From the NCBI GenBank assembly GCA_964019425.1, contig OZ025788.1:868001-932000 (forward strand): 64,000 nt of DNA, given 5' to 3'. Both the position numbers and the translations under genes were made by a program. This stretch comes from Flectonema sp. DT1601 (Eukaryota). Under the pieces are notes generated by a model. The model saw only the letters and a program-made list of their open reading frames with translations, searched no databases and was not told where the DNA came from. This document shows positions 19,082 through 56,886 of the stretch, piece by piece; the stretch's first letter is position 1; every line of letters starts with the position of its first letter.

Positions 19082-19424
19082 TTTAGTAAAGAAATGAATA
19101 GATATCTGATTAATAATAAAATAATAAATTCACAACTATCACCGACTGAATAATCTCATATCCACACCAGTGTTGTCCTTCAGACTGAATATAGAACCCT
19201 CCCATATTAGGTTTATTCATGGTGTCGATCAGTGCTGGGAAGAGTAGTGTTAACGAAATTAAATGCACCCTGCGTTAGGTAGGTTTTTATTGGTTTTTCA
19301 GGTCGTTGATAAAAACGGGCCAAAAAAAAAGGCCGCAAAACAAATAAGAAAATATTGAAAAAGAGCTTTTGTTTTCATAGGGAGGAAGAATTAGTAGTCG
19401 AGATGTCCAAAGTCAGCAACTCGC

Positions 19425-21669: not shown

Positions 21670-22098
21670 TTTAGTGGTTTGAACGATGAGATGCTGGTGA
21701 GATAATTTATAACAACGACAAGGAAGACTAAAAGTCTTCCTTGTCAAAAGTCACACTAAAAGGCCTCATCACTAACAATAAGAACTGTCCTTATTCTGAA
21801 AGAGTTAATAATAAGTGAATAAATGAGTATTTCTACACCCCAACTTGCACACTCGTAAACAAATGAATATTAGCGGAATCGCAATAACTAAATAAAGGCA
21901 AATGGTTACTCGCCTGGTGTAAAGGCTAGTAGCTAACTAAGATGGCTATCCTCATTCTAGCAGGAGATGGAAAGGATTTCCAAGAGGGAACAGAGCTCGG
22001 GTTTGTTAATAACTCGGAACAGAATCAATAAGATGAATAAACAAAAAACAAAGAGCAACAGTGTCTTTGGTGGGTGTCGAGGTGCGATCAAATCAGAA

Positions 22099-37092: not shown

Positions 37093-39915
37093 TCAGAGTA
37101 ATCCCTTTCTTGCTAAAACAGCTGTAGAGTGTGCTACCAGATCTTCTTCTCCAGAGTAGTGTATGGTTCTTCCAGTCTCCCAAAAAGGACCCATCAGCCC
37201 CATGATCACAGAAGCACAGTCTGCTGGATTCAACATCGCTGCTGATTGACACCTCTTCGCCAATTCCATGGCTAAGTATTTTGCATCACAAGAATGGAAA
37301 ATAATATCACATCGAAGGAGTTCTTTAGTACCCTTTCCTCCCAACATAGTTTCAAGTGTTTTAATAGCAATACGTCTGGCATCAGGTGGTCCTGGATTTA
37401 AGTAGTACGCTTCTATACCCCAGTCTTGTTCACAGAGGACTTCGTATTGAGCAAGGAAGTATGATTGCTTAACACAATTCTTATCATTCTCGTGAATATT
37501 TGTTAAGAATATTCCCAACCCCATGGGAAGCATGGATAGGTTTCTTGCTCCGTGATGCTTTGCACACTTTAGAATCACTCGATACGTTTCTTTAATTCTT
37601 TCTTTAAGCATGTTTTGTGCGTATGGTCTAAAGCCACACCAGCCTTCATATCCAGGGACGTAGCTTGGTTGTGGAGGGCGTTTGAAATAGCGACTGGCTT
37701 CGCGGATGGTTGGTAGTGGCTTTCTAAAGTCTATTGCTGTGGCAGTGAGAAAGGTAACTGGCTGAGGTGTACATTTTGCTAGTTGATTGTGACTCCCATC
37801 ACAGCCATCGACTAAGAAGTAACCTTGTTGACTAACACAAATAGCTGTGCTAATCTCTGCAAGGGTTTGATCGAGAGTTGCCTTAGCATCAGTCGGACTA
37901 GGAAACCCAAGCATGTGAGAGCTCTGTAGAACATGTCTTCTCCATCCTTGAAACTTCTTAAATAACGGACTGGTCATTAACTCATCGTTACAAACAGCTG
38001 TCAGCTGTGCTTTTGTTTTTTTTTCTTTTATTAAATATTCATACATATCCTTTGCTAAATCTTTTTTCGAATGCTCCTTCGACAACCTCTGAAGAGTCAT
38101 AGTCAGAGATAGCAGCTCACCTTCAAGGATTCTTTGCAACTTATTTTCCTCTGCTTCTGTGCCAATGTCAATAAGTGGTGTTGCTCTATGAACTGACCAA
38201 AACAATTGGTATTCAGGGACTGATGTAAATTCCACTAACTCAGATAAGAATCGACGAGGTATCTGTGATGCAATATTCGTAAACGTTGATCGAGACAGTC
38301 GCTTTAACTCCGCAATAGTAATTTTGAATTCTTCAGTTCCATAGATGTCAGCTGCTGTAGGACCTTCTAAATCACCGAAATCAGCATCTAATGAGAAGCC
38401 TGAATTGTGTTCATCACGAGAGATCGAATCAATGATTTCGTGATTTATAATAACTTCAGTTTTATCATCGACTCTTGATCCTAATTTAGGTAACAATTCA
38501 ATATGGTGAACACCTGGTTCAATTTCCCTACGATCAGAAGTTCTTCCCAACAGAGACAGAAGTACGTGTGCAGGACGTTTTCTGTGAACGTACATTCGAG
38601 GTATTTCTCTTGAAGTGTTGTTGTAAGTGGATGATTTTTTTGAATTGCTTCGAATGTCAGTTTTAGCAAATGGCGACGCATGTGCTAATGCCCCAGTCAC
38701 TAATTTCTCAACATGGTCATTGAAATCATTATCAGCAAGAGCTGAAGAATCGAGACCAAAGAATACAGTAGCAGTTCCTGACAAACTGATATCAAAGTCT
38801 TTACGTTTATACGACGAACATGTTTTTAATCCATATTTTGTATTCCGAACTGCTTTTCCTTTTAGATATTCATGTTGCTGGGCGTCTTTACATGTGTTGC
38901 CTTCTCGTTCCGCAGCAAAACACAATTCTAAAAAGCTTCTTAAAGGTACAGGCATTTCGCCTATATCATCAACATGGTTTAAAGGTGTATCATTATTAGT
39001 AGCAGCTTTCCCTGCAATATACATATACGATTCTGGTCCCCAGTCTGATTTTCCGAGAGGAGCTCCAGACCATGTTATCATGGCGTTGTACATTTCTAGT
39101 ATGCTGCAGCCTAAAGCCCAAAGATCAGATTGATAACTGTATTTATTATGAACTATTATAAACGGGGACATGTACGGAGGTGATCCAACAGCTGATCCTT
39201 TTGTCACAACTTCCGAAGACGAAAGTCCAAAATCTGTGAGTGCTACGCTTCCCATGCTATCAGCTAACATGTTTTGAGGTTTTAAATCTCTATGAACTAT
39301 CTCACAGCTGTGTAAATAACTGAGACCAGCAACTAGTTGAATTGTGTATTTGCGAAGTGTATATGCTGGAAGAGGTCCAAACTCAGAAATTTGATGATAT
39401 ATACTACCCTGAGCCCAGTATGACATAACAATTTCTGCAGTTGTTTGACAAGGTGACTCGTGAAATCCCCAAACCCGAACAATATTTCTATGAGAAAGCT
39501 GCTTTAAAATAGTGTACTCTTGTTTGGCAGCAGCTACCGTTGTGTCTTCATTTATTTGAACCTCTTTGACAACGTAGACAGTGCCGTAGTCATCGAGGGC
39601 TTTGAAGACTTTTCCAAATGCTCCTTTTGCGATCATTGTTCCTCTCTTTAGACCGCAATTCATATCACCAGCTGATTTCAATACCGTTGTAACATTGCAG
39701 ACTGTTGCTCTTCTTCCTGTGCCTGGTAAGGAGCGTACTTTCCTAGAGCAACTTCTGTATCCTTCGGCTGCAATGGTACAGAGGCTATGCAAAGCTTCGA
39801 CTTTATCACGTGGACATGATTGTTTTAATTCATCAATGATTTCTCCGAATAGGTTTATAATATCATGGGATTCCAGATATTCTTTATCAATTTCATTGTT
39901 GTGTAACTCTTCCAT
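37093..39915 (-). CDS. STE-group protein kinase with an N-terminal RIIa/Dpy-30-like docking helix pair and a C-terminal macro/PARG-like domain
   Basis: Kinase motifs AKGAFGKV, VVKE, HRDLKPQN, DFG, GSPPYMSP, SDLWALG. N-terminal EYLESHDIINLFGEIIDELKQSCPRD. C-terminal MLNPAD..GEEDL and LSMLPMGLGIF. Confidence 0.85.
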   Translation of the reverse strand: MEELHNNEIDKEYLESHDIINLFGEIIDELKQSCPRDKVEALHSLCTIAAEGYRSCSRKVRSLPGTGRRATVCNVTTVLKSAGDMNCGLKRGTMIAKGAFGKVFKALDDYGTVYVVKEVQINEDTTVAAAKQEYTILKQLSHRNIVRVWGFHESPCQTTAEIVMSYWAQGSIYHQISEFGPLPAYTLRKYTIQLVAGLSYLHSCEIVHRDLKPQNMLADSMGSVALTDFGLSSSEVVTKGSAVGSPPYMSPFIIVHNKYSYQSDLWALGCSILEMYNAMITWSGAPLGKSDWGPESYMYIAGKAATNNDTPLNHVDDIGEMPVPLRSFLELCFAAEREGNTCKDAQQHEYLKGKAVRNTKYGLKTCSSYKRKDFDISLSGTATVFFGLDSSALADNDFNDHVEKLVTGALAHASPFAKTDIRSNSKKSSTYNNTSREIPRMYVHRKRPAHVLLSLLGRTSDRREIEPGVHHIELLPKLGSRVDDKTEVIINHEIIDSISRDEHNSGFSLDADFGDLEGPTAADIYGTEEFKITIAELKRLSRSTFTNIASQIPRRFLSELVEFTSVPEYQLFWSVHRATPLIDIGTEAEENKLQRILEGELLSLTMTLQRLSKEHSKKDLAKDMYEYLIKEKKTKAQLTAVCNDELMTSPLFKKFQGWRRHVLQSSHMLGFPSPTDAKATLDQTLAEISTAICVSQQGYFLVDGCDGSHNQLAKCTPQPVTFLTATAIDFRKPLPTIREASRYFKRPPQPSYVPGYEGWCGFRPYAQNMLKERIKETYRVILKCAKHHGARNLSMLPMGLGIFLTNIHENDKNCVKQSYFLAQYEVLCEQDWGIEAYYLNPGPPDARRIAIKTLETMLGGKGTKELLRCDIIFHSCDAKYLAMELAKRCQSAAMLNPADCASVIMGLMGPFWETGRTIHYSGEEDLVAHSTAVLARKGLL

Positions 39916-40466
39916 TGTCCCTGTTTGACAAATTAGTTGTTATAGACTCGTATTACTACTTAAGTAAACTAAACTACTTCCTGAAAGTACTTCAAACAAC
40001 AATATAAACCGAAATAAAAGAATATTGCAAGTGCTTTTTAAAGGAAGTGTGCGTAGGTTTTATTTATTTTTCATATTTTTTTTTTTTTACCCCTTTATTT
40101 CCCCCTTCTCTTTTTTTTTTTTTTTTTTGCTTTCTTTCTCTTTTTTTCTCTCAAGGGGTAGTTAAGAATCAAATTCACAGTATGAAAAAAAAAAAAAAAA
40201 AAATGAAAAACACTTTGCCCCAGCTGGTGCTTTGATAGCTGGGTGGGGAGAATAAGTCTATATGGGATGGAGTGAAAGACCAATTATTATTATTATTACT
40301 ATTTTTTTTTTTCTCGCGCGCACAAAAAAATGAACCAGAATATGGAAAGCGAGCGGCAACAAACAAGAACGACGAAAAAAAAAAAAAAAACAGTTAGTGT
40401 GACGTACTATTGACCTACTCTAATTACTTACAAGTAGCTAATTAGCAGGACACCTCAACTGCGTGC

Positions 40467-40657
40467 AGGCTTGAAATGAATCTCAAAAGTACCTTTCAGT
40501 AATAATATAAAACCAACCTTTGATTCGTTTTCCATTAGAAGTTGCCCTATATCCATGAATTTAGGGCTTAAGATAAATCTCAAAAGCGCCTACTACTTGA
40601 TTAGATATCCATTCCAATAAAAACGCTTTGGGCTTGAGATTAGTCTCAAAAGCACCT
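40467..40657. repeat. Three ~28-nt semi-palindromic repeats with unrelated spacers
   Basis: GGCTT(G/A)A(G/A)ATNA(A/G)TCTCAAAAG(C/T)(A/G)CCT at 40467, 40564 and 40630. Confidence 0.7.
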
Positions 40658-41830
40658 TTACAAAAAACATTAAACATCACAACCACTACCCCGCACTGCA
40701 GTTCAATTTTACTTGTCAGTAAACAGAAACCTTAGACTTGGGGGGATATCACGAGCTATCTTTCGGCCCACGTTTTTTTTTGTTTGGTTGCGTGTGTAGG
40801 TCTTTTTTTTTTTTTTTTTTTTTTGCTGCAAGATGGAGATTATTTTTGATGCCATTTTTTTTGGGAAGGGAACGGGAATGAACTGAGCTGGCAGTTGCAA
40901 CAAAATCAAACATCGTGAACCAATACAAAGAATAAGGTTTTCCTTTTTTTTTTTTTTAAATTTTTTTTCTTTTCAGCCATGAAGTTGCAAGGTGCGCACA
41001 AGTGAAGGAGAATACCGCAAAAAAAAAAAAAAAAAAAGCAGTACAACTATTTTTTTTTCCTCTAAAATAACAAACGGTCACAAGATTATCCCGTTTAAAA
41101 AAATATGAAAACATGAAAACATGAAAGATTAAAAACTGAACCAGTCAATCACTATGAATAAAAAAGAACAGAAAGACGACGACACCCAACACTCGATTGT
41201 AAGTAATTCTGTTCCCCCATATAATGGGATTCGTGGAAAAAAGAGAAACAAGGCTCAGTATAGTTTTCAGCAAATTAAAAAATAATAAGGGCGGGAGTGT
41301 GAAAAGAAAACGAAAAAAAAAAAAAAATACTCATCTTTGTCTAACAGTTGTTTTACTTTATGAAGTTATGACTGAAAAAAACAGAACCCCAACTTCCTCC
41401 AAAAGAAAGAACAGCAAAGTACCTTAGCCTGGTTTAGGTTACATATTTTTATTTTATTTTATAAAAAAAAAAAAAAAAAACGAAAGAATAAAGGCAAGAA
41501 GCAAAACAACACCACCCATCGCACTCTAAGATATTTATTACGTCCCACAGAACCCGCAATGCCAACAGTAGCAATTTTACGGACTAAGAAGGACAATATT
41601 CGAATCGAATAACGTTACACCAAACGGTGTGACGACAACCAACTTGGCCCATAAAAAAAAACTAAATGTGAGGAAAATTGCTTGCTTCCAAAAAATGTGG
41701 AGGGGGGGAGGTGATTATTATTTTCGTATCAGATTCAAGTCGTTGGAGTTTTGGCAGGAACTTTGGTTCACAAAAAAATTGAAAAAAAAAAAAAAAAAAA
41801 AAAAGTCCGCCACCTTTCTCATCTATAATG

Positions 41831-42295
41831 TTTATTATTTATTTATTTATTATTTATTTACGAAGCCTAGGAAGCCAAAGCCAGGAAAAGCTCACAGAGT
41901 AACAGTTATATCGCTACCAGCAACCGTGAGACTCTCACAGACGATAAGAGACGTAGAATAACCTGGAACAAATGACTACCTAAACCCACCGCCGGCGCGA
42001 GCAGACAGTGTTTGAGACGGCTGATAACGCCAATTTTCGTCAAAGAGAGGGAGAACACGCCAAATTATTTATTTTATTTATTTATTTATTTACGAAGCCT
42101 AGGAAGCCAAAAGCCAGGAAAAGCTCACAGAGTAACAGTTATATCGCTACCAGCAACCGTGAGACTCTCACAGACGATAAGAGACGTAGAATAACCTGGA
42201 ACAAATGACTACCTAAACCCACCGTCCACGCGAGCAGACAGTGTTAGAGACGGCTGATAACGCCAATTTTCGCCAAAGAGAGGGAGAACACGCCA
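41831..42295 (-). repeat. Tandem pair of ~232-bp retrotransposon 3' ends (41831-42062 and 42064-42295), each with its own (TAAA)n tail
   Basis: Direct repeats differing at about six positions outside the tails. Confidence 0.9.
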
Positions 42296-42391
42296 CATTA
42301 GATCAGAAAATAAGAAATAAAGTAATGATAAGTAATAGAAATGATACTAATAAATAAAATAAGAAATTACACTAGAGGAAAGAGACGTTCA

Positions 42392-45300
42392 TTATCTACC
42401 TCGGGGATTACTTCGCAGGAGGCGACTTAGGCGAGAGAGGAACTTAGAAAGCTTGGATTCCGACCAGCTAGGATTGACCAGCACATTAACCATAGAAAGG
42501 TCGTCAATAACAACATTTAAATCGGTAGCTTTATAAGCGTTATCAATAAGTTCCATAACATATTTCTTCACATCAGAACCCAGTAGCGAGAAACTTGTCT
42601 TCCTTTCGATGTGTGTGATTAGTTTCTTCCTCACAAAAATACCCTGAAGCGGAAACTTCAACAACAACGGATTGTCAGATAACTCTTTAAGATGATTATC
42701 AAGCTTGCTGATCAATAACAACGTGAAAGGCTGCCATTCGGTTCGAAAGAACATATCCAGAGATAGCTCATCATCAGGTGTCGGAAATCTCATGGTTTGC
42801 TTTACTAATTCCCTGGTCTCAACGCATTCAAGCAGCAGATGCTCAGTTGAGGTATCCTGAAAGCCACAGAACAGACAACATTTAAAGCCCGCAGTGACCC
42901 TCGGTAGCTTTACAAGCCTGTGGTGAGAGGTTCGCAGACGAGACAATTCTACCTCCTGCCCCCTATTGAGACAGGGAAGGAAACGCTGAGGGCCAGATCC
43001 TAGAGTCGCTTTGCTGTATGAATGCGAAGAGTCCACAGTACCCATAGCCTTCCAATTTGCTTGTTTCTTAATACAACATTGAGCCATCCTGAAATCATAC
43101 GGAGTTAGTTCAGGGTCAACTGATTGCAAGGCTGCCTTCTTTGCCAGTGTATCAGCCAGTTCATTCCCTGCAATGCCACAATGAGATGGGACATGTTGGA
43201 AAATCAACGGCCTATCAAGAAGCACTGAGCGTTCAAAAATCTCACGATTTGTTGATGATGACTGCCTGGATGGCCCCCTATGCAGGGAGGCAAGCGCCGA
43301 CTGACAATCACTGAAAATATGAATCACGCCATGCGAAACAACATGAAGATTCTCCTCTAGTAGTTCAAGGGCTGACAATAGTGCTAGTTGTTCTGCATTG
43401 TAAATCGTGAGGGACGGTTGGAACTTGGAGAGCTTCTCAATGACCTTGCCAGCAACTAGCAGAACAGCAGCCCCCCCACATAATAATCCCCGCTCCTCGT
43501 CATGGAAGACCGAGGCATCAGTGTAGACTTCAGCAACACACGGGGGCAGTTCATTGAGGGTCGTCATCGCCACAGTATACTTCTCCTCAGGTGTGTCAGT
43601 CTTGTCATAACCGCAGGACGTGTTTACAACCAAAGGAGGATGCTTCGACCACGGAGGGTACTGATGTGGCAGAACTTTCTGGGACCTAAGCTCTGACAGA
43701 GAAAATTCCGAGGAACAGGCTTCAACTCTAGTCTGCCATGGTCTCTTCTTCTCACCACCGTTAAACAGCCTCCATGAAGGACATTCAGGTTGTCGCCTTA
43801 GCAAATCTTCATGAACTAGGGCAAGGAGCCTAGATATCGTTTGTTGCAGCGGTGGAATTCGCGACTCAACTGTGAGCACCACATCCTTCGTCGAGAACGA
43901 GCAACCAGTGAGTCTTATCCTTAGATGACGCAAGCACGCTTCGATCCGCTTGATCTGAGCATCAGACAAAAAGGGAGAAAAGGCCTTTAGTCCAAAGAAC
44001 GCTCGAGATAACACTGCACCATCTACAAGCTGACGAAGGGTATCAGTTTTGACCTCATAGGCAGAGAACATTTTGAGTAAACCGCAACCAGCTCGAATTG
44101 TTTTCACAATCTTATCCACCTGTTCGTCGAAGCATAGCGAGTCATCAATGATAACTCCTAGGTATTTCGCGCTCCTGACACGTTTCAGCGGGATCGCTGC
44201 TTTCAGCCTGAACTCTTTGCTCTTACGAGCACAGGCCAGTCGGACAAAGTCAGAACGTCTCGTCACCGGGTAACCATCAATCTCCAGTGGCAGCAAAGCA
44301 TCAGCGAGATCCAGAACTGCCCCTATTGATGGAGAAAGCTTCTCAGTGAGAGCACCGGCAGAGCCTGTAGGCATGTGTAACTCTTCAACAGACGATGGGA
44401 AGTAAAAGCGAGGTGCCCTACTCCATTCGACATCGGAGCCAGAGATGCGCTTACCAAAGGCAACGTACTCTGTTTTCTTCATGTTTACCTCCATCTTAGA
44501 GGAAACCATCCAACCTTCTATCTGAGAGATGACGGACAGGCCCTTCGCTTCGATCCCATCTATCTTCTCATGTTGCAGAAACACGGCAAGATCATCAGCA
44601 AACAGAACACTGAGATCAGCATCACTTATTAGACCTGGCAGGGAGTCGACAAAGATCCGAAATAAGAGAGGACCAAGCACAGATCCTTGAGGGACCCCCT
44701 TTGTACACGATCTGGATCCATTATCTAATCCCAGAGACAGACTCACATTTCTATCCGAAAGATAATTCGCAAGCCATTTAACATACGGAACCGGCAGGAC
44801 AGCTACCAATCTATCAACGAGTATTTGATGATCCACGTTATCGAATGCCCCAGAGATATCAAAGAGGATGATCGCTCCATAACCATCATAGAGTTTCTGC
44901 ACACCGGAAGCCGCATCCACCAATAGCGAGATGTTCTCTTCTACATTTCTGCCCGGCGTAAAACCAGACTGCCTAGGGTCCAACTTCCCCTCCAACAAAT
45001 GTTCACATCGATTACCTACAAGCGACTCCAAGCACTTCGAAACAATTGACGTCAAAGAGATTGGTCTGTAAGAAGACGGAAGAAGCGGGTCACGATCCCC
45101 TCCCTTCGGAATTATTATCACCTTGGCCTTTTTCATGCAAGAGGGAAAGATACCCCTCCTGAAAGATAGCGAGGCGAGTCTAAGCAATAGTAGGAGCATA
45201 CGGGGACCCAAGTTAAGCAGCATATTATTAGAAACAGAATCTAAACCAGACCCGTGGGAGGGAGTCAATGACTTCAGTACCGTGTATAACTCATGAATCG

Positions 45301-46555
45301 AAAAAGAACCACAGCTTGAGTCATCATAATCAGCAGGCTTCGAATCAGGAACTAATAACGGTGAGGATTTTGAATCACCAAAGAAATGGTCGAGTAAATC
45401 ATCAGCAGCTACCGGAACTTCCTTCGAATTAGACCGACCGCCCCTGAGTTCCCGCAGTTTGTCGAAGGCCCAGGCCGCTCCTTTTGAAGAACCAATTTTC
45501 GCAATAAGATCAGGTCTCAGCTTAGGTAATTTCTTCCTCCGCTTCGTATCAGATTTGAACCATTTGTTTGGAAGCGTTTCAATAGCCACCTCCTCAATTA
45601 GACTAATAAATTCACATCCAAGCTTGTTCACATTAGACATCCCCTCCAAACGATGAGCTCGCGCTTCAGTTAGCACGCGAAATGAGACCCAGTGCTCATC
45701 CTCGAACTTGTTGTAGAACCAGCGGCGGTGAGCGGGAGTGGTAATTTGTGAGCAGCCCGGATATACCGAGATGTCAACCACTATTGGCGTGTGGTCGGAC
45801 CCACTATCAGACGCACTGTATTGGTGTACATTCAACACCTCAATATTGCTGTCGACAAGAAACAAATCAGGTGAAGTCTCTGAACAAGGTCTTGTATCCA
45901 GCGGAACATCGCAAATCTGCAGTCCATTTCCGTTAATCCAATCAAGAACTGACAGACCTCGCGACGAACTACTTGTTGGAACCACCCTCGACCACGACCG
46001 ATGGTGAGCATTGAAATCTCCACATACTACTTCACCGAAGACAACAGAGGTCGGCACCAAGAAATTCTGCGGAATATACACATTAGAAGACGTAATCGGA
46101 CCGATGTCTGTCATTACCTCGACAACTAACACCTCAAACGGTGAATTACGCTCAGTTGGATCCGATAATCTCCTGACCACAAGGGAGTCCCTGCAGAAAG
46201 TCGCCAGTCCACCACCGCGTTTTGCCTTGCCATCAAAATTTAATCTGATTCTGTCCCTACGGAAGCAGGTGTATCCCTGAAGTTGAATCTGTTCATCAAG
46301 AACCAGATCAGTGAGCCAAGTTTCTTGAATATGGAGGATGTCAGGATTAGCCGATTGAACGAGCCGTACCAGAGATTCATGGTGCTTTACCATCGACAGC
46401 GCATTCCAACTAAGTATTCTCAGCGGCGATATATCAGACATCGGACCAGGGTGTCTCGGAAAACCACTACGATAGAGTTCCAGAAGCCCACTCACAGAAT
46501 AATAGTACTCCAAGGACGGAGTCTTTCCCAATAAAGAGTCAATTGGAAGTGGTTG
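42392..46555 (-). CDS. Retrotransposon ORF2: AP endonuclease, reverse transcriptase, RNase H, CCHC finger (first ATG at 46441; frame open from 46555)
   Basis: APE: SWNA, IQETW, GDFNAHH, SDH. RT: YRPISLTS, QSGF, FDISGAFDNV, GVPQGSVLGP, FADD, KYLGV. RNase H: YTDAS, AEQLAL, FSDCQS, HVPSHCGIAGNELAD. Finger: CLFC..H..C. Confidence 0.97.
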   Translation of the reverse strand, partial: QPLPIDSLLGKTPSLEYYYSVSGLLELYRSGFPRHPGPMSDISPLRILSWNALSMVKHHESLVRLVQSANPDILHIQETWLTDLVLDEQIQLQGYTCFRRDRIRLNFDGKAKRGGGLATFCRDSLVVRRLSDPTERNSPFEVLVVEVMTDIGPITSSNVYIPQNFLVPTSVVFGEVVCGDFNAHHRSWSRVVPTSSSSRGLSVLDWINGNGLQICDVPLDTRPCSETSPDLFLVDSNIEVLNVHQYSASDSGSDHTPIVVDISVYPGCSQITTPAHRRWFYNKFEDEHWVSFRVLTEARAHRLEGMSNVNKLGCEFISLIEEVAIETLPNKWFKSDTKRRKKLPKLRPDLIAKIGSSKGAAWAFDKLRELRGGRSNSKEVPVAADDLLDHFFGDSKSSPLLVPDSKPADYDDSSCGSFSIHELYTVLKSLTPSHGSGLDSVSNNMLLNLGPRMLLLLLRLASLSFRRGIFPSCMKKAKVIIIPKGGDRDPLLPSSYRPISLTSIVSKCLESLVGNRCEHLLEGKLDPRQSGFTPGRNVEENISLLVDAASGVQKLYDGYGAIILFDISGAFDNVDHQILVDRLVAVLPVPYVKWLANYLSDRNVSLSLGLDNGSRSCTKGVPQGSVLGPLLFRIFVDSLPGLISDADLSVLFADDLAVFLQHEKIDGIEAKGLSVISQIEGWMVSSKMEVNMKKTEYVAFGKRISGSDVEWSRAPRFYFPSSVEELHMPTGSAGALTEKLSPSIGAVLDLADALLPLEIDGYPVTRRSDFVRLACARKSKEFRLKAAIPLKRVRSAKYLGVIIDDSLCFDEQVDKIVKTIRAGCGLLKMFSAYEVKTDTLRQLVDGAVLSRAFFGLKAFSPFLSDAQIKRIEACLRHLRIRLTGCSFSTKDVVLTVESRIPPLQQTISRLLALVHEDLLRRQPECPSWRLFNGGEKKRPWQTRVEACSSEFSLSELRSQKVLPHQYPPWSKHPPLVVNTSCGYDKTDTPEEKYTVAMTTLNELPPCVAEVYTDASVFHDEERGLLCGGAAVLLVAGKVIEKLSKFQPSLTIYNAEQLALLSALELLEENLHVVSHGVIHIFSDCQSALASLHRGPSRQSSSTNREIFERSVLLDRPLIFQHVPSHCGIAGNELADTLAKKAALQSVDPELTPYDFRMAQCCIKKQANWKAMGTVDSSHSYSKATLGSGPQRFLPCLNRGQEVELSRLRTSHHRLVKLPRVTAGFKCCLFCGFQDTSTEHLLLECVETRELVKQTMRFPTPDDELSLDMFFRTEWQPFTLLLISKLDNHLKELSDNPLLLKFPLQGIFVRKKLITHIERKTSFSLLGSDVKKYVMELIDNAYKATDLNVVIDDLSMVNVLVNPSWSESKLSKFLSRLSRLLRSNPRGR

Positions 46556-48277
46556 TTAATTCCTCGAGTAGTCCCGTTTCTCATTCCGGTCAAGACGGTC
46601 AGCCATTTCAGACTTAGTAGCAGCAACAGAGTTAGCTCGTTGCCTACTTGAGACCGTCAGCCTCTGAGAACCCGATCCTTTATCGTTATTCAGGGACTCA
46701 ATCTCCTTTCGAAGACATCTATTCGCATCCCTCTCTTCAGCAAGGTCCTGCCGTAGACTCTTCACAGCAGCCGTTAGTTCAGTAACCTGCGATACCAATT
46801 TAGAAATGTCGGATTGTTGACAGTTGTACTGCGAAGGCGGTAGGGGCAGCTGCTGTTTGTTCGATTGTAGCGTCTGCAGATATTGCTGATTTTGCTGATT
46901 TTGCTGAGAAACAGGCGGTGGTGATAAATCAATTCCAACAGATGGCGCAGCGTTAGGTTGACAGAGGTGAGGAAACTCGTCCAGGTCCATCTTATCGGGA
47001 TTCTGCTTGCCGAGACCCACCTCTTTGATTGTGATCATGTCATCACGAAGAATGATGAAGTTACTCTTGGGTTTCTCCTTGGCCACTACAATCATCTTAG
47101 GAAGCTCCTTTCTGCTCCTGTACCTAGCAACGACGTTAATCTCCCACCCTTGGTGAGCACAGACCTGCACTACTTCCAGCGAACTCATCGCATCAATTGC
47201 TCGGCTCCTCAAACAGAACTTGAGGCCTTCAGGTGGAGGCGGCAGTGCATTCTCACCCAGCTTCGATCGCACGTAATCTTCGTCGGTCTTCAGACACACA
47301 ATCCCCAGCTTGCGTGAGTGGCGGTAGAACCTCAGAGGTAACCGGAGTTCACCGGCTAGCGATGAGGCTAACTTAAAATCCACCGTGAGCTGGATTGACG
47401 ACCTGCACGGTGCTGTGTCTGCGAAATTCGGTACTGATAAGAAGTACCCACCACTCCCACTTGCCCTTCTCAAGGCGTCAACAGCGTCTGCTGGCACCCT
47501 CATGTTCACAGACTTAACATGAGGGTCTGATTCCTTCTTGTTGGCAGGCCACAAGAGGTGCGGCTCGATGGGCATGTTCGTGACTGCTGTGTAGTAGTCA
47601 GAAGCCTTCTTGCACAACTCATTAGGTGAAGGTACCTTGTCGTTGGAGTGGAGCGCGTGGTGGTGGAACAATACCACTCGATTGTCACCGGCAGTCAGAG
47701 CGTCTCCACGGAAGAGGGTAGCTGGTTTCCCGGTTGATACAATCCAACCGGTCCGATGTGTCAGTACACCGTCGTTTACCACCGCCGGGAACTGTATCTT
47801 CTTACCGCCCCCAGGGTTTTTCTTGCAAATTACCGAGAGGTTTGTTCCCGGTCGGAGTTTAATCATCGCATCTACATCAGAGGCCGTGCCCAGTGACACA
47901 CCACACGTAATCGACGTGTTAAACACGCCTGACATCGAAATTATTGGAACAGACCAGTCATCATCACGGAGTTGGCAGTCCCACCGCTTCTCTTGCACAT
48001 TCGGTAAATTAGTTGCTGCCTTCCCATCACATCGGACCTCCTTCAGTCCACTAAACGAATTCAGCGCTTGAGCCGGCTCAGGCTTGCGCTTCACTACCTT
48101 GGGCCGCTTACCACGTACCCTCGTCCATTCCTCATTCATCGGCGATAAATCCACCGATGGCTTCTCTCCCCCGTTGCGTTTAGTAACCCCCTTTACATTC
48201 AAACCCTTCTGCATCTCACCGAGCATGCCCACCATCTTCTCCAGCATCAGGCCAAATAGGCCTGGATCCAATGTCAT
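46556..48277 (-). CDS. Retrotransposon ORF1 (573 aa; Q/P-rich segment and C-terminal coiled coil)
   Basis: Long ORF directly upstream of, and in frame with, ORF2. No zinc knuckle seen. Confidence 0.85.
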   Translation of the reverse strand: MTLDPGLFGLMLEKMVGMLGEMQKGLNVKGVTKRNGGEKPSVDLSPMNEEWTRVRGKRPKVVKRKPEPAQALNSFSGLKEVRCDGKAATNLPNVQEKRWDCQLRDDDWSVPIISMSGVFNTSITCGVSLGTASDVDAMIKLRPGTNLSVICKKNPGGGKKIQFPAVVNDGVLTHRTGWIVSTGKPATLFRGDALTAGDNRVVLFHHHALHSNDKVPSPNELCKKASDYYTAVTNMPIEPHLLWPANKKESDPHVKSVNMRVPADAVDALRRASGSGGYFLSVPNFADTAPCRSSIQLTVDFKLASSLAGELRLPLRFYRHSRKLGIVCLKTDEDYVRSKLGENALPPPPEGLKFCLRSRAIDAMSSLEVVQVCAHQGWEINVVARYRSRKELPKMIVVAKEKPKSNFIILRDDMITIKEVGLGKQNPDKMDLDEFPHLCQPNAAPSVGIDLSPPPVSQQNQQNQQYLQTLQSNKQQLPLPPSQYNCQQSDISKLVSQVTELTAAVKSLRQDLAEERDANRCLRKEIESLNNDKGSGSQRLTVSSRQRANSVAATKSEMADRLDRNEKRDYSRN

Positions 48278-50874
48278 AGTTGTTAATTATTGGAAATCAA
48301 TAAAGTACAGAAATAGTTTGCACAATAAAGTACAGATGAAATGAGTAGTATAAAGTTTCAACAAAGACGGTAAATCCGAGAATGATTTTTGACAACAACT
48401 TTAATCACAATAACAATAATGGAGCAATGAGATGAAGCTGAGAGCGAGCCCTACAAAAAACAAAAAAAGAAAACAGCTGCTGCGCAAAACAGCATCTGCC
48501 TATGCATTATAAAAGAGTGCACTTTGCAGACCAACAAGCACACGAGATAAATGAGAAGTTGGGTATAAAAAAAATAAAAAAAAATCTTTTTTTTCTCTTT
48601 TTATAGTAGTGATTATTAGTCAAGACCCAAACATACCAAAGTAGCCTAAAAACTTTTTTTTTTTAGATTAAGCGAGGATTCCTCTCATTTTTAAAGAAAC
48701 TGCGGTTAAACTGATATTTATATTTGTCGGGACTTCAGTTTCTAGAAATGAGCCCACGTTACTGAAAACAGTGTTCGTTAAATTAAGCGGTGGTCACTGG
48801 GAGTCTACTCAAATTAGCAAAGTGGTAGTTACTTTATAATAACAATACAAGTATTTTACTTAAACCAGCAATCGTCAACAACTGTGATCTCGGTCACATC
48901 GACCGAGGTCACAGCAAGTTATTGTCATTATTCAAAGAAACGATTGCAAAGCAGTTTTTTTTTCTCTCTTTTTTTTTGTATATCTTTACTCAAAGCGACA
49001 AACCCTTCATATGCTGCTGTATGGTCACCTTCTGGAAAAGACAAGTTGTCTTATGTACAAACAACGTTTCACGCAACAAAGAAAGACGTGACGACATGAA
49101 CGGGAGTAGAAACAAAAGGAAAGTCGAGAGAACATTATAAAAGAAAGAAAAGAATAACAAAAAAAAAAAGAAAATGGTCGCTCATTTTTTACGTGACTAG
49201 CTTCACTCTTTATTTTTAAACAATTGCTTGTTTGGCTAAATAATTTTAAAAAAAAATTAATAAACACGAAAAACATTATGAAAAAAGAAACATGAGAATC
49301 CCAAAATAGTGAAGAAAAAACAGATGAGTTGGTAGAGGGAGAATTCAACAACACTGCAGTGACTTATCTTTATAAAAGAAAACTCGGCTGCATAATTGAA
49401 ATTCAAAGGAGAAGAAAAGAAAAAAGCAACTCTTTAGAACCGCCTTCTGCTGCTAATCGAATCGAGAGTTGCGAATAAACGCCTCGTATTTCTGCAAGGT
49501 TAGACTTACAACGGATTTTATTCGAAAAGGTATCCTTTTATTTTATTTTATTTTTTGCACTTTCATCGGAGAAACAAAAACCATTCAGATTAAGAGAGCG
49601 GTTACCCATGCCATTATTATTTAGTATTACTGTCTTCGATCAAACAAGGCTGAATCTGAAGGTTCAATTAATGGTCTCTTTTGTTAGTTTTTTTATTTTA
49701 TTTCATTTAATCAACTTCCTTCTTTTCCTAATCTACTGCTTTCAATCAGTGAAAAAGTAGTAGACAACGCAAGATATCAACAAGCATGTCAAGTTATGAA
49801 TACTTGTTGAAAAGTGATGTCTCCTTCACTAAGGAACATGTGAGCCTGTTGCAGGTCAATAATTCTTTTTATTTTTTTTTTTAAAAACAAAATCAAGTAG
49901 GGAATAAGGGCTTATTGCATATATTGCTGACCGAACCCGCTCTTAAGCAAGGCAGGGATTACAAAAAAAGAACAGCAAAAGCAAAAAAACAAGTGATTAT
50001 TTTAATTTTGGGCTGGGGATAACTCACATCAACAGAAAAACTAAAATCTGCTGACGGAGGGCTAATTACATAACGATTTTATGTCTTAAAACATTCAGAG
50101 AAAAGCAAAAAAAAACAATAAGCGGATAATAGGGATGGATGACAAATTAGTGACTTCATGGCAATTGAAATTAAGTTTTCTTTATTCTCTATTTACATCT
50201 TCTAAATAGTAGTTCTTGTACAACCATGGAGGCCAATTATTGAACATAAAAGAAAAAGGCGGATTTTGAGGAATGGTTTGCCTGATAGTTGTTTGATGAG
50301 GTTCAATCGCACGAAGTAACCAACAAAACAAAACATTGGCAAAGTGACGGGAGCGAAAAGAGAAAAAAAAAAGAAAACACACTCAGCTTAGGGGTGTCAA
50401 TATTGGAATTGCTTTGGAAAGTTTTGTCGACAACAGAAGAAATTATTATGCCTCATCTAAAACAGGACGTAGGCATGCCCTCCGGACTGAGATTGATGAA
50501 CGTGACGTCACAGTATATATGAAGCACACATGATCCGATGTACTTTATGTTGCTGCTTGTGTTGCCTGATGAGGAGTAATAATAAAGAGAAGGAAGATTT
50601 TCAAAAAAAAAAAAAAAAAAAAAAAAAAGAACAATGAAATGAGCTATGCTATTCACCCAGCCCTAAATAATAAAAAGAAAAAAAAGAATTCCCTCTTTCG
50701 GCAAAGCTGACACCTCTAATTGTCAAACAGTAATATTCAAATGATAAATCTTTTAAAACTCAACCGTGAAAAAGAAAACAAATAACAACTATTGGGGTGA
50801 CAAGTATCTTGAGCATGACTTTATATACAAGCAATCGCTACACGTAGGTACCGTACTTCTTTCACAGCTCCAAG

Positions 50875-50988
50875 ACGCAAAGCCAAAAATCGGAAAAAAC
50901 TCACAGGGCACAGACGAACAAATGACTACCTATTGCCCGCGCGAGCAGACGGTGTTAGAGACGGCTGATAACGCCAATTTTCGTCAAA
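50875..50988 (-). mobile_element. Internally deleted remnant of the retrotransposon 3' UTR
   Basis: Shares GAACAAATGACTACCTA and GCGAGCAGAC..GAGACGGCTGATAACGCCAATTTTCGTCAAA with 41831-42295. Confidence 0.85.
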
Positions 50989-51402
50989 TAAATATAGTGA
51001 GGCATCGATAAAAATAAATAAAAACACACGGAAGGTATTTTCTGACAGGTAAAGCAAGCTACGTACGCTGTCAAGAGTTTTACCAACATGTAAAAAAATA
51101 ATTAAAAAGACAAGGGAGAAAAAAAAAAAAAAAAAAAAAAAAAATGATTAAACCTGAAGCACACGTCATTCAACCCCGCAATAGAAGAAGAATAAAATCA
51201 TAATTTTTTTTTTGGCGCATTTCAGGTCACATAGAGGGGATTAAGAGGAAAAATGCTTGCCAATAAATACGGAATTATATCATCATCAGGAGAAAGAAAA
51301 AAGAAAAAGAAAACGTAGGAGTACTTCTGTCTCAAACAGCGTCCATTTGTCATCCAAAAAAAAAAGAAAAGGAAAACAAAAAATGAAAAAATCATTATGA
51401 TT

Positions 51403-51486
51403 TTTTATTTATTTATTTATCGAAGTCAGAGAAGTCAAGCTTCTGCAGAGAAGCATCACTAGGGTACCTAGGCTCTCCATGAGACG
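51403..51486 (-). mobile_element. Diverged retroposon 3' terminus with (TAAA)n tail
   Basis: TTTATTTATCGAAGTCAGAGAAGTCAAGC..AAGCATCAC aligns loosely with TTTATTTACGAAGCCTAGGAAGCCAAAGC..AAGCTCAC of the full element. Confidence 0.5.
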
Positions 51487-53991
51487 TAAATTGACCAGAA
51501 GTAACTTTTTCAATACAACAGATATAAAAAGAGAGAAAAAAAAAACATGCACAGAAACATTCAAACTTAATTTATTTTTTTCTTTTTTTTTTCTTTTTTT
51601 GGGAGGGGAAGTAGTCTGGGTTCCTTTTTTTTTTCATTTTTTTTTTGTTTTATCTTCTTACTCTAAACGCAAAAGACAAAACAGCACCTGTGAAAAAGTC
51701 CATTGGAAAGAAAAGGTATGGTAAAAAAAAAACAGGGCCAATAAATAACGAAGGAGAAAGCAAAATATCAAGAAGGCTGTTATAAAGTAAAATGAATCAC
51801 AAGTCCAAGAGAGACAAGTTAAGGGAAGGAATGTCCCATTTTTATTTTTTTTAGTGATCTTTGATAGCCCTCATTTTTTTTTTACATAATTTCAGAAAAA
51901 GAAAAGAGCGGGGGAAAAAAAATGTTCAGCACGAACTTTGCGTTGCTTAGTAGTACACACCAAACCGTAATTGGAATGGCTGCATTTCAACTAGAGACAT
52001 CAATGTAACTTTATAGCTTACATCAAACTAATGTGACACGATGACTACGTTGAAGGGAGAAAAAAAAAACTAATTTTTTGGTTGAATTGAATGGGCTGCA
52101 CAACCTGAAAAAAAAAGGGGGGGGGGCGGTAAACTGTTTGATTAGGTTTATACGAATATAAATCTCCTTATTGTATCAAAAGCTAAATAATGAAATTTTA
52201 AAAACTCATGACACAGTGACTAACATGGGGGGGAGAAATTCCTCAGGAGGGCAGCTTCATGCTATGCTGCAATCTTTTTTTTTTTTTTTTTTTTTTTTTT
52301 TTGTGTTTTGATGGTGTTTGTAATAATCGGGTTTGCAACAATCCTTTTCTTCCACATGATTGTTTAAAAGGTTCTCATTTCTACGAGAGTAGTTGAAAAC
52401 GACAACGATAAAACTCAGGGTAACAGATGATAAGATATGCAATGTACCTGACAAGTTTTCCTTTGTGACCAACACATGTTAACCAGTTGAAAACCTCCAC
52501 GACACGCACACTTAGGTAGTAGATCATATATATTAGTATTGGTGACCAAGTGACACCAAACCAATATCTTTTGCTGATAGACATATTTCTATACGGTTTT
52601 GCCTAAAGAACTTGTGCGATGCCAAACCGAAAGAAACCAGGCAACCAGCTAGCATACAAACAATTTATCTGCGTCTTGCAGTTATGTTTGTTTAAGTCGA
52701 GAAAAAAAAAAAAAAACAAAAAAAAAAATAATAGATTCTTTTTTTTTTTTTTTTTTTTTTTAGGATGAGGGGGGTGGTGAAAAAAATCTTCTTCGTATTA
52801 TATGGTTTTTTTTTTTTTTTTTTTTTTGTTACTTTTTTAATCCTACAACAACTGAAGTCAGTTGATAATGAAAACAACAACAAAAAAAAAAAAACACATA
52901 AAAGACTTATTGAGGTAAACTTCTAGATGAGCTGTAACTCGTAATTAAAGTACATAAATAAGAATGAATCTCAATCTAATAGACTCGCAGACTAATATAA
53001 GCAAGGTACCTTTCGTATTTCCACTTCCGTGTTGCTAAGCGTCGCATGGTGGGGGAGAAAAAGCAAAGCAACATTACTACCAAAAACTAAGAGACCAACT
53101 CCTAAGCAAAGGTGAGAAGCTTCGTTCACGAAAAATTGACCAATATTTGCTTTTAAAAAAAAACCCCCCGAAATAATGCAAGAAGAGAAATTATTGTCAC
53201 CATTAAAAAAAAAAAAAAGAAAAATGATTAAATAAACAGTTGTTGAGTCTCTTGATGCACTGTAGGAAGTTATCAGAATAGAATTTTACAGCAGTCATCA
53301 GGACTGTTCAAGCGGCTAACAGACACAACCCAGTGCAGGGAGAATCACATAGTTGAAGTTGTCGTTGAAAAGTTGGAATTTTTTTCGTGAAGACAAATGG
53401 GAAAAAAAAAAAAAAAAAAAAGAGTGCAGCCATTTTTTTTCTCTCAAAACCAAGATAAGGCTACCAACGCATCGAATAAAAAAAAAAAGCTACAACAGCG
53501 CAGAATCATTTACGGGGATACAAATATAAAAGAAATCATCATCGAGGCAATCTGAAGACTACCACCAGAAAGGGATTGTGTGCTGTCTGTTAATATTATT
53601 TTTTTTTATATTGTATTCTTTGAACAAAACAGAACAAAAAAGAAAGCCTTACCATCCCTTGGATATAACCCTCTAATGCATATCGGCCAGAGGATGTGTA
53701 TTGTGGGTAGACGACTCACTGAACATTATCACTTTGAAACACTCAAAGAGAACGATAATCAGCTGATATCTTGCCTGCTAAGAATACACAACTCACTACT
53801 ATGGGACATAACTATTCTTAAAAAGCATTAAGCTAAAAAGTAAAAGAGTTTCGAAATGCTTAAATAAAAACAGAAGGTTGATTGTCAAACTGTGATCTGT
53901 TCACTCAGAGAATTCACAAGTGGCTCAGTTGTCTTCATCAATCGTGATGAGTTGATAATAAGTAAGGTCACGTACACCCTTACAAACATAA

Positions 53992-56886
53992 CTATATCAC
54001 AAAAGGATCAATGAGAAGCTGTTCTGCTGATGCTCGGTCTTCAGGGTTTCTCTTTAGTACTCGGGCAACACAATTAATCGCTTCTTCGGACATCTCATCA
54101 GTCGAAGGAAGGGGAACATCACCATCTTCTTGACAAAGCCAACGCAAGAAACGGTGAGTGCTGGCAGGTACTTCGTCACAGTATGCATATGGAGTAGAGA
54201 CTCCTCCCAAAAGCATTTGAATTATCGTTAAACCAAGTGCCCACATATCACTTGCTGTACATGTTTCATTACGGCAAGCTTCTGGAGACATAAACAATGG
54301 CGTTCCTATTAATGTTCCACCAGTTTCTATTTCTGTCATTGCTACACATGTTCCGAAATCACTTAACTTACATTGTCCATCAGTGTGTAGTAGTACGTTA
54401 CCTGGTTTTAAATCACGATGAATTACATTGTGTCCGTGAAGGTAGTGTAAACCTTTTAAAATATCCTTTGTGTATCTCTTAGCAGTGAGTGGTTTGATTG
54501 TTCCAAACTGCTCAAGGACTGAGGCAAGGGAACCTCCGCTTACGTATTCCATCGTTATTACAACGTAACGTTCGTAGACACCGCAGCTTATGAAACTGAC
54601 GATGCTGTCATCTCTGAACTTTATCAGCTGACTGACCTCATTTACGTATGACTCGAGTGATTCTGCTGAGGTATTGCGCTTTCGACCAAATTTTGTTTTT
54701 ACTTCATTTTGTATGGATGGAATTTTCATACATTTCAATGCAACTAGTGATCCTTCAGAAGACATTCCCAACCAAACTTCACCAAACGCACCCTTTCCAA
54801 GACATCTCTTTGGTGATCGCTGCCAAGAGGATCCATGTCTGTCAGTGAACTGTGTTGGTGGTTCATCAAAAACTGATTCATCACTGACATCGGATGATTC
54901 TTCTTCGAGTTTAATTGGAGTTCTACAATCATTAATTGCACTTCTTAGAAATTCAGCAGTGCTATCCTGCCTTGGAGGAATATCAATCAGCAGAGATGAT
55001 GAACAACGAGATCCTCTTGGGCGTGAGTTACGAGGGTAAGAAGATTCACCAAAAGTAGGGTCTTCCTCCCATTCTTGCCATCCTAAGATTTTTCTACAAT
55101 ATGGAGTTGGTAGATGAAGATCGTCATCCTGTGCTGCTGCTACTAAGTTTTGAAATCTTTGTTGTTGAATGTCATCACCCTCTTCCTCATCTGAATCATA
55201 AACCAGACATGGTAATCTATCTATCTCAGCATATTGACCATTAACAAATTTTGTAAACATCGATTTCCACTCAGAAGCACTCTCAGCTTCAGTTGTTTTA
55301 CTACGAGTTGGAGCACTGTTTAATAATTCATAAACAACTTGTCTGGTTGAATCATTTGGTCCACTAATCATATCAATAGGACGACAGATCATTGTCTCAC
55401 GAGTAAGTGTTGAGACTGTTTCAGATATAAGAAGTGGTGCTTGAATTACTCTTGATAATTGATTTAGCATTCGACTCTCTTCTACTAAACCTCCAAGAAC
55501 GAATGGAGAACGGTGTCTGTCATTTCCAATATTGCCACAGTATATGGGACCTGATGTAATAGAAACACAAAACCCTACTCTGTCTCCTCCAGAAACTGCT
55601 TCCATCGACCGTCTAATACCTAAAGCAGCTCTACATCCATGGTAGGCATGTAGAACACATGTTTGATGACTATTCCATGAAGCGATTAAACTATCAGCTT
55701 GCAGATGTAGAAGATTCCCTCCCTCATTCTTGACTGTGTCCATCGCAAAGCATTGCAATGCTGATGCCAACTCATACAGTTCTTGGACATCTCTGTAGTG
55801 GTGCTCAAGGTCCATGATTCCGAATTCTACGCTGCAAATAGTTCCCTTTTTCTTTTTCATGTTGCCCTTTAGATGACTGTACAAGTGTCCAGCAGCACCT
55901 CCAGTCATAGCGTCATCAACTTCTGATGAAACACTGTGCTTACGGTTAACGGTACTTTGTCTTCTTCCTGTTGAAAAACGTCTTCCAACATCAGATCGAG
56001 ACACTCGTCTTATTGCTGCAAGGCAGTCACCGACAGATGGTCGACGGAGTTTGTCACTCATACTTCCATTTGGTAGTAGTGATTGCTTTCTCTTCGACTG
56101 CATTGGTTCGATAATCTCAACAACACTCTCAGGAGTCTCATCCTTTGCTAAGTTAAATCTGATTGATTTTGGAGAAGGTTGAAGTGATTGTTGAAATGGA
56201 GAGTTCTGTAACGCTGATATCGTGTTCATTGGGTTTGTTGTACATCTCGACATAGAACAAGTTTCTTCATCATCTCCTTGAGCGGCAGCCTCAGCAGCGC
56301 TGAGACCAAGAGTGTAGTTCGGCAGAAACATTGCTTCACCAGTATGAGACTGCTCACTTTGAGGGCTTGCATCACGGTTAAGAAATGTTGGAGTGATTGC
56401 AACATCTTCACTGCTGGCATCATCATCAGTCGGGTTTGAGATGTTATTTTCAAAAGAACACAAAACGCTGTCAGGTAAGTACGGTTTGAATTCTCTCAAT
56501 GAACTAAGAAGACGTATAACACCAAGTTGTATTTCAAAGACGTCGTCAACAAAACATAATTCTGAGTTTTCAGTAACAATATCATCACATTCACACCATG
56601 AAAGTGATTGCAAGTCTCTCGTTATGTCCGATAAGTGTGATTTAATTGCATGAGTTCCTATTGAGATAGCGCATGCTACCAAACAACATAACACCGCAAT
56701 CCCTAACAAGATATTTTCATAACTTTCTCTTGATGGCTCTTGAGTTGTTATTAAGAATAAGACTAACGCCATCCCAGCCAAAGCCCCCTCTGTCCACTTC
56801 GCCATTGAACTTATGTCAATGTGACTGCTGCGTGTTGTAATTTCCCTCTCTTCTTCCCCCATGATTCCCCCCATCATTTTATTCAT
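53992..56886 (-). CDS. Receptor-like protein: two TM helices, degenerate class III nucleotide cyclase domain, STE11/MAP3K-type kinase
   Basis: First ATG at 56886. Cyclase-like GGNLLHLQADSLIASWN and SITSGPIYCGNIG. Kinase LGKGAFGEV, VALK, MEYVSGGSL, HRDLKPGN, DFG, GTPLFMSPE. Confidence 0.88.
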   Translation of the reverse strand: MNKMMGGIMGEEEREITTRSSHIDISSMAKWTEGALAGMALVLFLITTQEPSRESYENILLGIAVLCCLVACAISIGTHAIKSHLSDITRDLQSLSWCECDDIVTENSELCFVDDVFEIQLGVIRLLSSLREFKPYLPDSVLCSFENNISNPTDDDASSEDVAITPTFLNRDASPQSEQSHTGEAMFLPNYTLGLSAAEAAAQGDDEETCSMSRCTTNPMNTISALQNSPFQQSLQPSPKSIRFNLAKDETPESVVEIIEPMQSKRKQSLLPNGSMSDKLRRPSVGDCLAAIRRVSRSDVGRRFSTGRRQSTVNRKHSVSSEVDDAMTGGAAGHLYSHLKGNMKKKKGTICSVEFGIMDLEHHYRDVQELYELASALQCFAMDTVKNEGGNLLHLQADSLIASWNSHQTCVLHAYHGCRAALGIRRSMEAVSGGDRVGFCVSITSGPIYCGNIGNDRHRSPFVLGGLVEESRMLNQLSRVIQAPLLISETVSTLTRETMICRPIDMISGPNDSTRQVVYELLNSAPTRSKTTEAESASEWKSMFTKFVNGQYAEIDRLPCLVYDSDEEEGDDIQQQRFQNLVAAAQDDDLHLPTPYCRKILGWQEWEEDPTFGESSYPRNSRPRGSRCSSSLLIDIPPRQDSTAEFLRSAINDCRTPIKLEEESSDVSDESVFDEPPTQFTDRHGSSWQRSPKRCLGKGAFGEVWLGMSSEGSLVALKCMKIPSIQNEVKTKFGRKRNTSAESLESYVNEVSQLIKFRDDSIVSFISCGVYERYVVITMEYVSGGSLASVLEQFGTIKPLTAKRYTKDILKGLHYLHGHNVIHRDLKPGNVLLHTDGQCKLSDFGTCVAMTEIETGGTLIGTPLFMSPEACRNETCTASDMWALGLTIIQMLLGGVSTPYAYCDEVPASTHRFLRWLCQEDGDVPLPSTDEMSEEAINCVARVLKRNPEDRASAEQLLIDPFVI

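Follow-up and report, generated by a model that had tools for sequence, protein, structure and literature searches.

A putative 2A-derived motif, probably no longer a skip signal, directly before the first ORF2 AUG of a two-ORF LINE

The window analysed here, a stretch of 64,000 nucleotides, carries on its minus strand a two-ORF non-LTR retrotransposon (LINE) in which ORF1 and ORF2 lie in one frame. Minus-strand positions 46486-46442, at the end of the linker between the two ORFs, encode L-L-E-L-Y-R-S-G-F-P-R-H-P-G-P (LLELYRSGFPRHPGP) and are followed at once by ATG 46441 (MSDISPLRILSWNA). From comparison with a sister family we take this motif to descend from a 2A/StopGo-like peptide, though the state of its core residues suggests that it has probably lost the ability to make ribosomes skip. 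The account that we favour, and to which we give about an even chance, is that the motif is a dead 2A relic ending a shared 30-codon leader and that the ORF2 protein (ORF2p) is made from the AUG at 46441 behind it, by reinitiation or scanning. The element is laid out as follows.

48451-48477, minus: candidate spliced-leader acceptor (T-rich tract and AG) at the putative 5' end of the element
48279-48288, minus: AATTAACAAC, copy 1, immediately 5' of the ORF1 ATG
46559-48277, minus: ORF1, 573 aa
46561-46552, minus: AATTAACAAC, copy 2, spanning the ORF1 stop
46556-46558, minus: ORF1 stop TAA, in the same frame as ORF2
46550-46555, minus: CAA CCA, matching CARYYA (TMV-type readthrough context), overlapping AATTAACAAC copy 2
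46442-46555, minus: in-frame linker of 38 sense codons (114 nt), frame 0 free of stops
46442-46531, minus: 30-codon leader homologous to the ORF2 N-terminus of a sister family (linker codons 9-38)
46442-46465, minus: degenerate StopGo core G-F-P-R-H-P-G-P (p12-p19); G-V-H-P-N-P-G-P in the sister
46424-46441, minus: gain of six residues (MSDISP) over the sister family, including the first ORF2 ATG (sequence alignments)
42392-46441, minus: ORF2, 1349 aa (Pfam domains)
about 46414-45791, minus: ORF2 APE domain (Pfam)
about 45112-44180, minus: ORF2 RT domain (Pfam)
about 43531-43130, minus: ORF2 RNase H domain (Pfam)
42877-42824, minus: ORF2 C-x2-C-x8-H-x4-C motif (read from the sequence)
42300-42391, minus: short T-rich 3' region of the element, adjoining a SINE-like repeat

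ORF2 of the window is identical to protein P0122. The candidate acceptor lies 173 nt upstream of the ORF1 ATG and has 21 pyrimidines in the 25 positions before its AG, a count equal to the best among the 10 host genes scored. No target-site duplication was found, the longest word common to both flanks being 9 nt; no second copy of the element lies within the 64-kb window, and an Rfam scan of 40000-53000 gave no match at the gathering score. The window has its long ORFs on one strand, an arrangement comparable to the gene clusters of Diplonema papillatum; together with the ORF1 relative from Flectonema neradi described below, this makes a diplonemid host likely. The SINE-like repeat is about 235 nt long, carries a (TAAA)n tail and stands in tandem against the 3' end of the element on the minus strand (41834-42067 and 42064-42300), with a partial copy upstream at 50916-50988; it has no match in Rfam. 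One contig of run X1 is less than 90% (roughly 88%) identical to the window over 42444-42707 and represents a related subfamily of the element. Elsewhere, 12937-21687 holds near-identical tandem repeats (98-100%) with copies of the gene for ribosomal protein uL4, and large host proteins with kinase-like domains are encoded at 53992-56886 (minus; Pfam) and 37093-39915 (minus). An upstream region of the first of these proteins resembles a nucleotide cyclase domain, for which Pfam gave no match.

The ORF1 protein has no match in Pfam at the cut-off. It is predicted to contain RRM-like domains and a C-terminal coiled coil in a model of modest confidence (mean pLDDT 62.7), for which Foldseek returned weak matches to RRM proteins (best E 1e-4, low TM-score). 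Homologues of ORF1 are present in the sister families and in Flectonema neradi, which we take to be a diplonemid; the best relative outside the family, P0182, is a EukProt record of that species and is 31% identical. The protein ends ...RDYSRN in seven of the eight members of its cluster, and also in P0183 and P0184, while in P0182 and P0188 ORF1 ends at a comparable place. The position of the stop is a family-wide trait. Two other explanations of the stop were rejected: a copy-specific nonsense mutation, since 7/8 cluster members end at the same residue, and a reassigned TAA, since this codon terminates 10 of the window's 16 long ORFs.

The sequence-only reading had placed the motif directly before the endonuclease (APE) ORF, in a linker running in frame from the ORF1 stop to the first Met of ORF2, and upstream of the first ATG. 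All of this was confirmed: the 38 sense codons are open, ATG 46441 adjoins the motif and there is no ATG in any frame between the ORF1 stop and 46441. The motif is thus in frame, open and, as described below, conserved as protein, but it lies upstream of the first AUG. Nor is the motif an artefact of assembly, since a run X1 contig (X1 is possibly the source sample) matches 46107-46519 without a differing letter and P0130, a called protein of another copy, has the same motif; the contigs of X1 and X2 have a gap at 46520-46595, which covers the ORF1 stop. A 30-codon ORF in the +1 frame runs from ATG 46584 into the linker, and no role was found for it.

That a peptide ending in PGP arose by chance in a neutral spacer is barely credible. 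The window does contain PGP 10 times over its six frames, and an open spacer of 38 codons is weak evidence when taken alone (p about 0.13), as is the absence of ATG from it (8 of 51 control windows). The fuller pattern G-x-x-x-[NH]-P-G-P, however, occurs once in the six frames, at the linker end, and the homology of the linker to a 2A-bearing leader in a sister family, which holds without the core residues, argues that the motif is more than chance. Linker codons 9-38 align without gaps to the leader of P0149, P0003 and P0156, with 10 of 30 residues identical and 17 positive. Codons 9-30, the 22 residues before the core, score 29-30, which none of 100,000 shuffles reached, and when LYRS is left out as well, the 18 residues preceding it still give p values of 6e-5 to 2e-4. 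The sister leader is the best match, the next best of 23 2A-bearing relatives scoring 9 (2 of the 25 [NH]PGP relatives were omitted from this scoring, their lead-ins being too short), and BLASTP extends into the leader unaided. Identity to the sister is 33% in the leader compared with 37% in the APE domain, and at this level of conservation the linker would have coded for protein over much of the period since the families diverged. Its codon-usage score (0.107, against 0.153 +/- 0.065 for pieces of ORF2) fits coding, but is confounded by stop codons and was not counted. Conservation of the linker as protein, which the sequence-only reading had named as a check and whose failure would have spoken against it, is therefore found in the related family, and on this homology the motif counts as 2A-derived independently of its core.

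The three sister families (P0002, P0003 and P0004), which probably come from one assembly since they have members on contigs of identical length, are 41-42% identical to the window element over ORF2. An RT tree built from 67 of the 119 usable sequences unites the four families in one long-branched clade with support of 1.0, in which the window family branches first; as the tree holds no named L1Tc, ingi or other reference, we give the clade no name. In the P0003 family the 30-residue leader ends NLLRSGVHPNPGP (GVHPNPGP) and is followed directly by the APE motif LRVLSWN. This core departs from (D/G/C/N)(V/I)ExNPGP at H14 only, which is a tolerated variant.

The core of the window motif is in a different state. 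Compared with the G-type StopGo core (D/G/C/N)(V/I)ExNPGP, as set out in the available part of Li et al. (2026, PMC12846837), G12 (at 46465, within the requirement for D/G/C/N), P17, G18 and P19 match and H16 is a listed rare variant, found also in 2 of 25 relatives, while F13 and P14 are not listed. The terminal P-G-P (p17-p19) is present at 46450-46442, although an alternative alignment pairs the window HPGP with the sister PNP. There are three leucines in the ten residues before SG, giving a leucine-rich lead-in, and upstream leucines accompany activity in eukaryotic 2A-like peptides. Position 13 should be V or I (rarely G) and position 14 E (rarely H, with Q, D and N weak). Of the 120 matches, 25 are [NH]PGP relatives; V/I is found at p13 in 24/25 of these and E/H/Q at p14 in 24/25, and none has F at p13 or P at p14. 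When P2A and F2A were put through saturation mutagenesis, I was the one replacement tolerated at V13, and no change of D12, E14 or N16 reached 0.6 except E14H in P2A; LINE 2As with non-conservative changes at p14 are nearly or fully inactive. The natural functional variants in the available text of Li et al. (2026, PMC12846837) carry one change apiece, either G at p13 or H at one of p14 and p16, and the H14 variant was found active in its natural context. All of these tolerance data come from mammalian ribosomes, and three simultaneous departures lie outside the scans. Judged by p13 and p14, the motif would not belong among active StopGo cores. The sequence-only reading had proposed a divergent skipping signal or a relic of one: the descent from a 2A stands and the relic is the likelier of the two, whereas a working skip finds no support in the functional variants published, in so far as that text was available, since F13 and P14 fall outside them.

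What the window family has gained at the core bears directly on how ORF2p might start. Here it is six residues longer than the sister, and the added stretch contains the first Met of ORF2. With one gap, PGP is aligned to PGP and MSDISP is gained after it; with two gaps, HPGP is aligned to HPNP and MSDI is gained inside the old PG-P, an arrangement that BLASTP and MAFFT prefer. The two differ by one point (hand count, BLOSUM62, gap costs 11/1), and under the second, equally good alignment the window PGP would not be the ancestral skip site. In both, an AUG is gained at the skip site, as would be expected if AUG initiation replaced skipping in forming the N-terminus of ORF2p, and with this new AUG skipping would be unnecessary. 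One of the 25 relatives has a Met in the six residues that follow PGP. P0050 has a Met right after the PGP of a canonical core, so that such a Met can be incidental.

The ancestor of the clade would, on our favoured account, have translated leader, 2A and APE together, the skip giving ORF2p a free N-terminus. The window family would then have gained the AUG, with selection on the core relaxed, and ribosomes that finish ORF1 would arrive at the first AUG beyond the stop, 46441, either through reinitiation or by scanning over 114 nt. The homology of the leader, the loss at F13 and P14, the Met gained at the skip site and the lack of any ATG between the stop and 46441 are all consistent with this. 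A spacer that is long dead, however, should lose its frame and its likeness to protein, and the leader is still open, in frame and conserved (33%) despite the long branch. Neutral decay also poorly predicts that RSG and PGP are intact on either side of four changed residues. The example of P0050 and the mammalian origin of the tolerance data count against a dead motif as well. The 114-nt gap is long for reinitiation; in mammalian L1, reinitiation has been proposed across a spacer of 63 nt (PMC5972666, in excerpt).

The ORF1 stop itself presents a further difficulty for a relic. The region reads AAT TAA CAA CCA, and the six bases after the TAA match exactly CARYYA, a context which the sequence-only reading had missed. 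It is expected after 0.0017 of stops, a figure that understates the real odds somewhat since the match was spotted after the fact, and in the window none of the stops of the 15 other long ORFs is followed by it. Downstream of the stop the frame is open into the polymerase ORF. As a motif for TMV-type readthrough, CARYYA is most effective behind UAG or UGA and less so behind UAA, the least leaky stop and the one present here (Loughran et al. 2014, PMC4132726, in excerpt). UAA is also the weakest stop for readthrough in general. The context, known from the window family only, gives the strongest hint that the linker may still be open to ribosomes. If the motif is a relic, the context would either remain from a route of readthrough used by the ancestor or be a side effect of the recurring word AATTAACAAC. 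The window has just two copies of this 10-mer, one immediately ahead of the ORF1 ATG and the other spanning the ORF1 stop.

If readthrough is still in use and the 2A is dead, a few percent of ribosomes would pass TAA-CAA-CCA without a later skip, and ORF2p would be made as an ORF1p-ORF2p fusion of about 1,960 aa in the manner of gag-pol, with Met 46441 either incidental or a second, minor start. We regard this as a real but minority possibility. Beyond CARYYA itself, it would account for the in-frame stop kept in 7/8 ORF1 members and for a linker that keeps its frame and its likeness to protein. One broken copy (P0128 and P0184, on contigs of equal length) implies, from its translations, TAG in place of TAA at the stop, and for the Group 3 LINEs of Paramecium it has been proposed that ribosomes read through the stop of ORF1 (PMC5405496, in excerpt). 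The called proteins of two sister families are also of interest here. Among the 15 members listed per cluster, all four P0002-family proteins that reach the N-terminal region (P0002, P0135, P0136 and P0142) start inside APE at about residue 52, past its Trp-Asn motif, and all five of the P0004 family (P0004, P0158, P0159, P0165 and P0168) start at about residue 92, past both the Trp-Asn and the Gln-Glu motifs. We presume these motifs to hold catalytic residues, as in the L1 endonuclease. For the P0003 family the gene caller instead chose the leader Met over the corresponding inner Met in 4/4 cases, which suggests that in the other two families there is no AUG before the first APE motif and that their ORF2 may be entered without one.

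Against such a fusion, the starts are gene-caller output and hence indirect, the context comes from one family, and no fused ORF1-linker protein was found among nine matches. The stop is UAA, and CCA may be just the Pro codon of a Pro-rich leader start. AATTAACAAC supplies most of the CARYYA context and its first copy likewise makes TAA followed by CARYYA 5' of ORF1, out of frame and without an upstream ORF, where it cannot act; this weakens the case for readthrough. The RNA after the stop has no significant structure (z of -0.57, -0.75, -1.65 and -0.59). A metagenome scan for a G-type 2A followed by a Trp-Asn/Lys word found at least 120 loci, 80 of them taken with flanks. The loci listed include five APE elements (L152, L157, L177, L220 and L222), none in the clade of the window element, and among the matches listed none of the four 2A-bearing APE elements with a visible upstream in-frame stop has CARYYA; the combination of readthrough and 2A is thus not shown to be general. 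In viral contigs, none of 134 pattern matches in a search for related loci was confirmed, and none of 121 loci with the 2A pattern had APE, RT or ORF1 matches. The ORF1 alignment was too variable to serve in the locus scan, and a search for shorter proteins found no further ORF1-ORF2 junction, nor a Flectonema ORF2.

A second form of readthrough would keep the skip at work. Readthrough of the ORF1 stop would set a low dose of ORF2, and GFPRHPGP, 38 codons further on, would skip and so free an ORF2p beginning Pro-Met-Ser-Asp. We consider this double recoding rather unlikely. It shares all the points in favour of readthrough and adds the intact RSG and PGP, the three leucines in p1-p10 and the conserved upstream stretch, and it would give a reason for the conservation of the linker; G12 and H16 are each known from functional variants, and rare variants have proved active in the setting native to them (from the part of the variant data available). 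F13 and P14, on the other hand, are without precedent in the 25 relatives or in the published scans as far as available, and the pairing of the window HPGP with the sister HPNP by BLASTP and MAFFT would place the old skip site across the MSDI gain. In the literature we found no element that combines TMV-type readthrough of an ORF1 stop with a downstream 2A skip.

The leader could also be translated without any readthrough, if ORF2 were initiated at the near-cognate UUG at 46531, the 2A remnant then being a weak skip signal or none. In a gap-free alignment TTG 46531 is paired with Met1 of P0149, and such a start would keep the leader under constraint as protein. M/L is, however, an ordinary substitution, MAFFT instead places the sister Met at the first linker codons, the downstream AUG would compete, and CARYYA and the in-frame ORF1 would be left unexplained; we judge this start very unlikely.

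Still less likely is trans-splicing of a spliced leader to an AG of the linker, which would make a separate ORF2 mRNA on which the first AUG is used and the motif is 5' UTR. A spliced leader is found on essentially all mRNAs of D. papillatum (PMC10161547, in excerpt), and the linker does contain AGs with no ATG before 46441. The best linker acceptors nevertheless have 15 pyrimidines in 25, fewer than all 10 host genes scored (16-21) and than the acceptor of ORF1 (21), which makes trans-splicing into the linker less likely. An ORF2p made from a separate mRNA would also lose its preference for the full-length RNA, which we count against this route.

The presence of 2A-like peptides before APE domains is already known, mostly from elements that lack ORF1. 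L1Tc/ingi and other APE-type LINEs share the leucine-rich lead-in and the PGP end directly before APE, and they too encode APE, RT and RNase H domains in ORF2 (Odon et al. 2013, PMC3708506; Luke et al. 2013, PMC3894237; both in excerpt). Most of these have no ORF1 (the exceptions being CR1-26_BF, CR1-53_BF and CR1-1_LG) and translate the 2A from an upstream AUG (PMC3708506; PMC3894237; available parts). The window element differs from them in its 573-aa in-frame ORF1 behind one stop, its AUG-less leader, its loss of p13 and p14 and its AUG after the motif. The likeness to L1Tc/ingi drawn by the sequence-only reading therefore holds for position, lead-in and PGP but not for the ORF1, which those elements lack. 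By the criteria for the Ingi clade, APE, RT and RNase H are present, but so is an ORF1, where none is expected. The Ingi clade has a 5' signature with an HDV-like ribozyme.

In non-LTR Group 3 of Paramecium tetraurelia, ORF1 and ORF2 are also in one frame and readthrough has been proposed from consensus sequences (Guerin et al. 2017, PMC5405496, in excerpt). That group is a ciliate clade, and the available part of the paper mentions neither a 2A-like peptide nor RNase H for it (PMC5405496). Elements of Cordylochernes scorpioides also have a 2A-like peptide that separates the domains of ORF1 from those of ORF2 (Snell and Matreyek 2026, bioRxiv 10.64898/2026.06.17.732966, in excerpt). These are single predicted fused proteins, with no intervening stop mentioned in the available text, and their cores are near-canonical by the design of the search (10.64898/2026.06.17.732966). 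A further paper, PMC3441728, concerns LTR elements in its available part. Our literature search found no two-ORF diplonemid LINE clade with a 2A leader behind an in-frame stop in a leaky context.

How ORF2 is translated from the mRNA of a two-gene LINE is an old open question, and 2A peptides have been proposed as a replacement of ORF1 in LINE evolution; the clade described here keeps both an ORF1 and a 2A-type leader. Its four families, apparently from one genome, seem to differ in ORF2 initiation: a Met may precede the 2A or follow it, or no start is called upstream of the endonuclease. They would form a natural series on the loss or rewiring of a skip signal, in which the window and sister 30-mers are a matched pair. 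Should the window motif skip, the StopGo core would need widening, GFPRHPGP being outside all known variants. Should it be dead, which is likelier, the element would offer a documented 2A relic together with a candidate for readthrough.

The metagenome also yielded 2A-like sequences in another setting, for which a literature search on 2A peptides in DNA transposons found nothing. At three loci a G-type 2A-like core stands in frame at the N-terminus of a Tc1/mariner-type transposase: GIEPNPGP at L160:57-1067 (minus), GVHPNPGP at L164:213-680 (minus) and GIHPNPGP at L221:249-608 (plus). Pfam gives an HTH domain in all three and DDE_3 in two of the three. The L160 core matches the expanded StopGo core exactly, and no in-frame Met precedes it.
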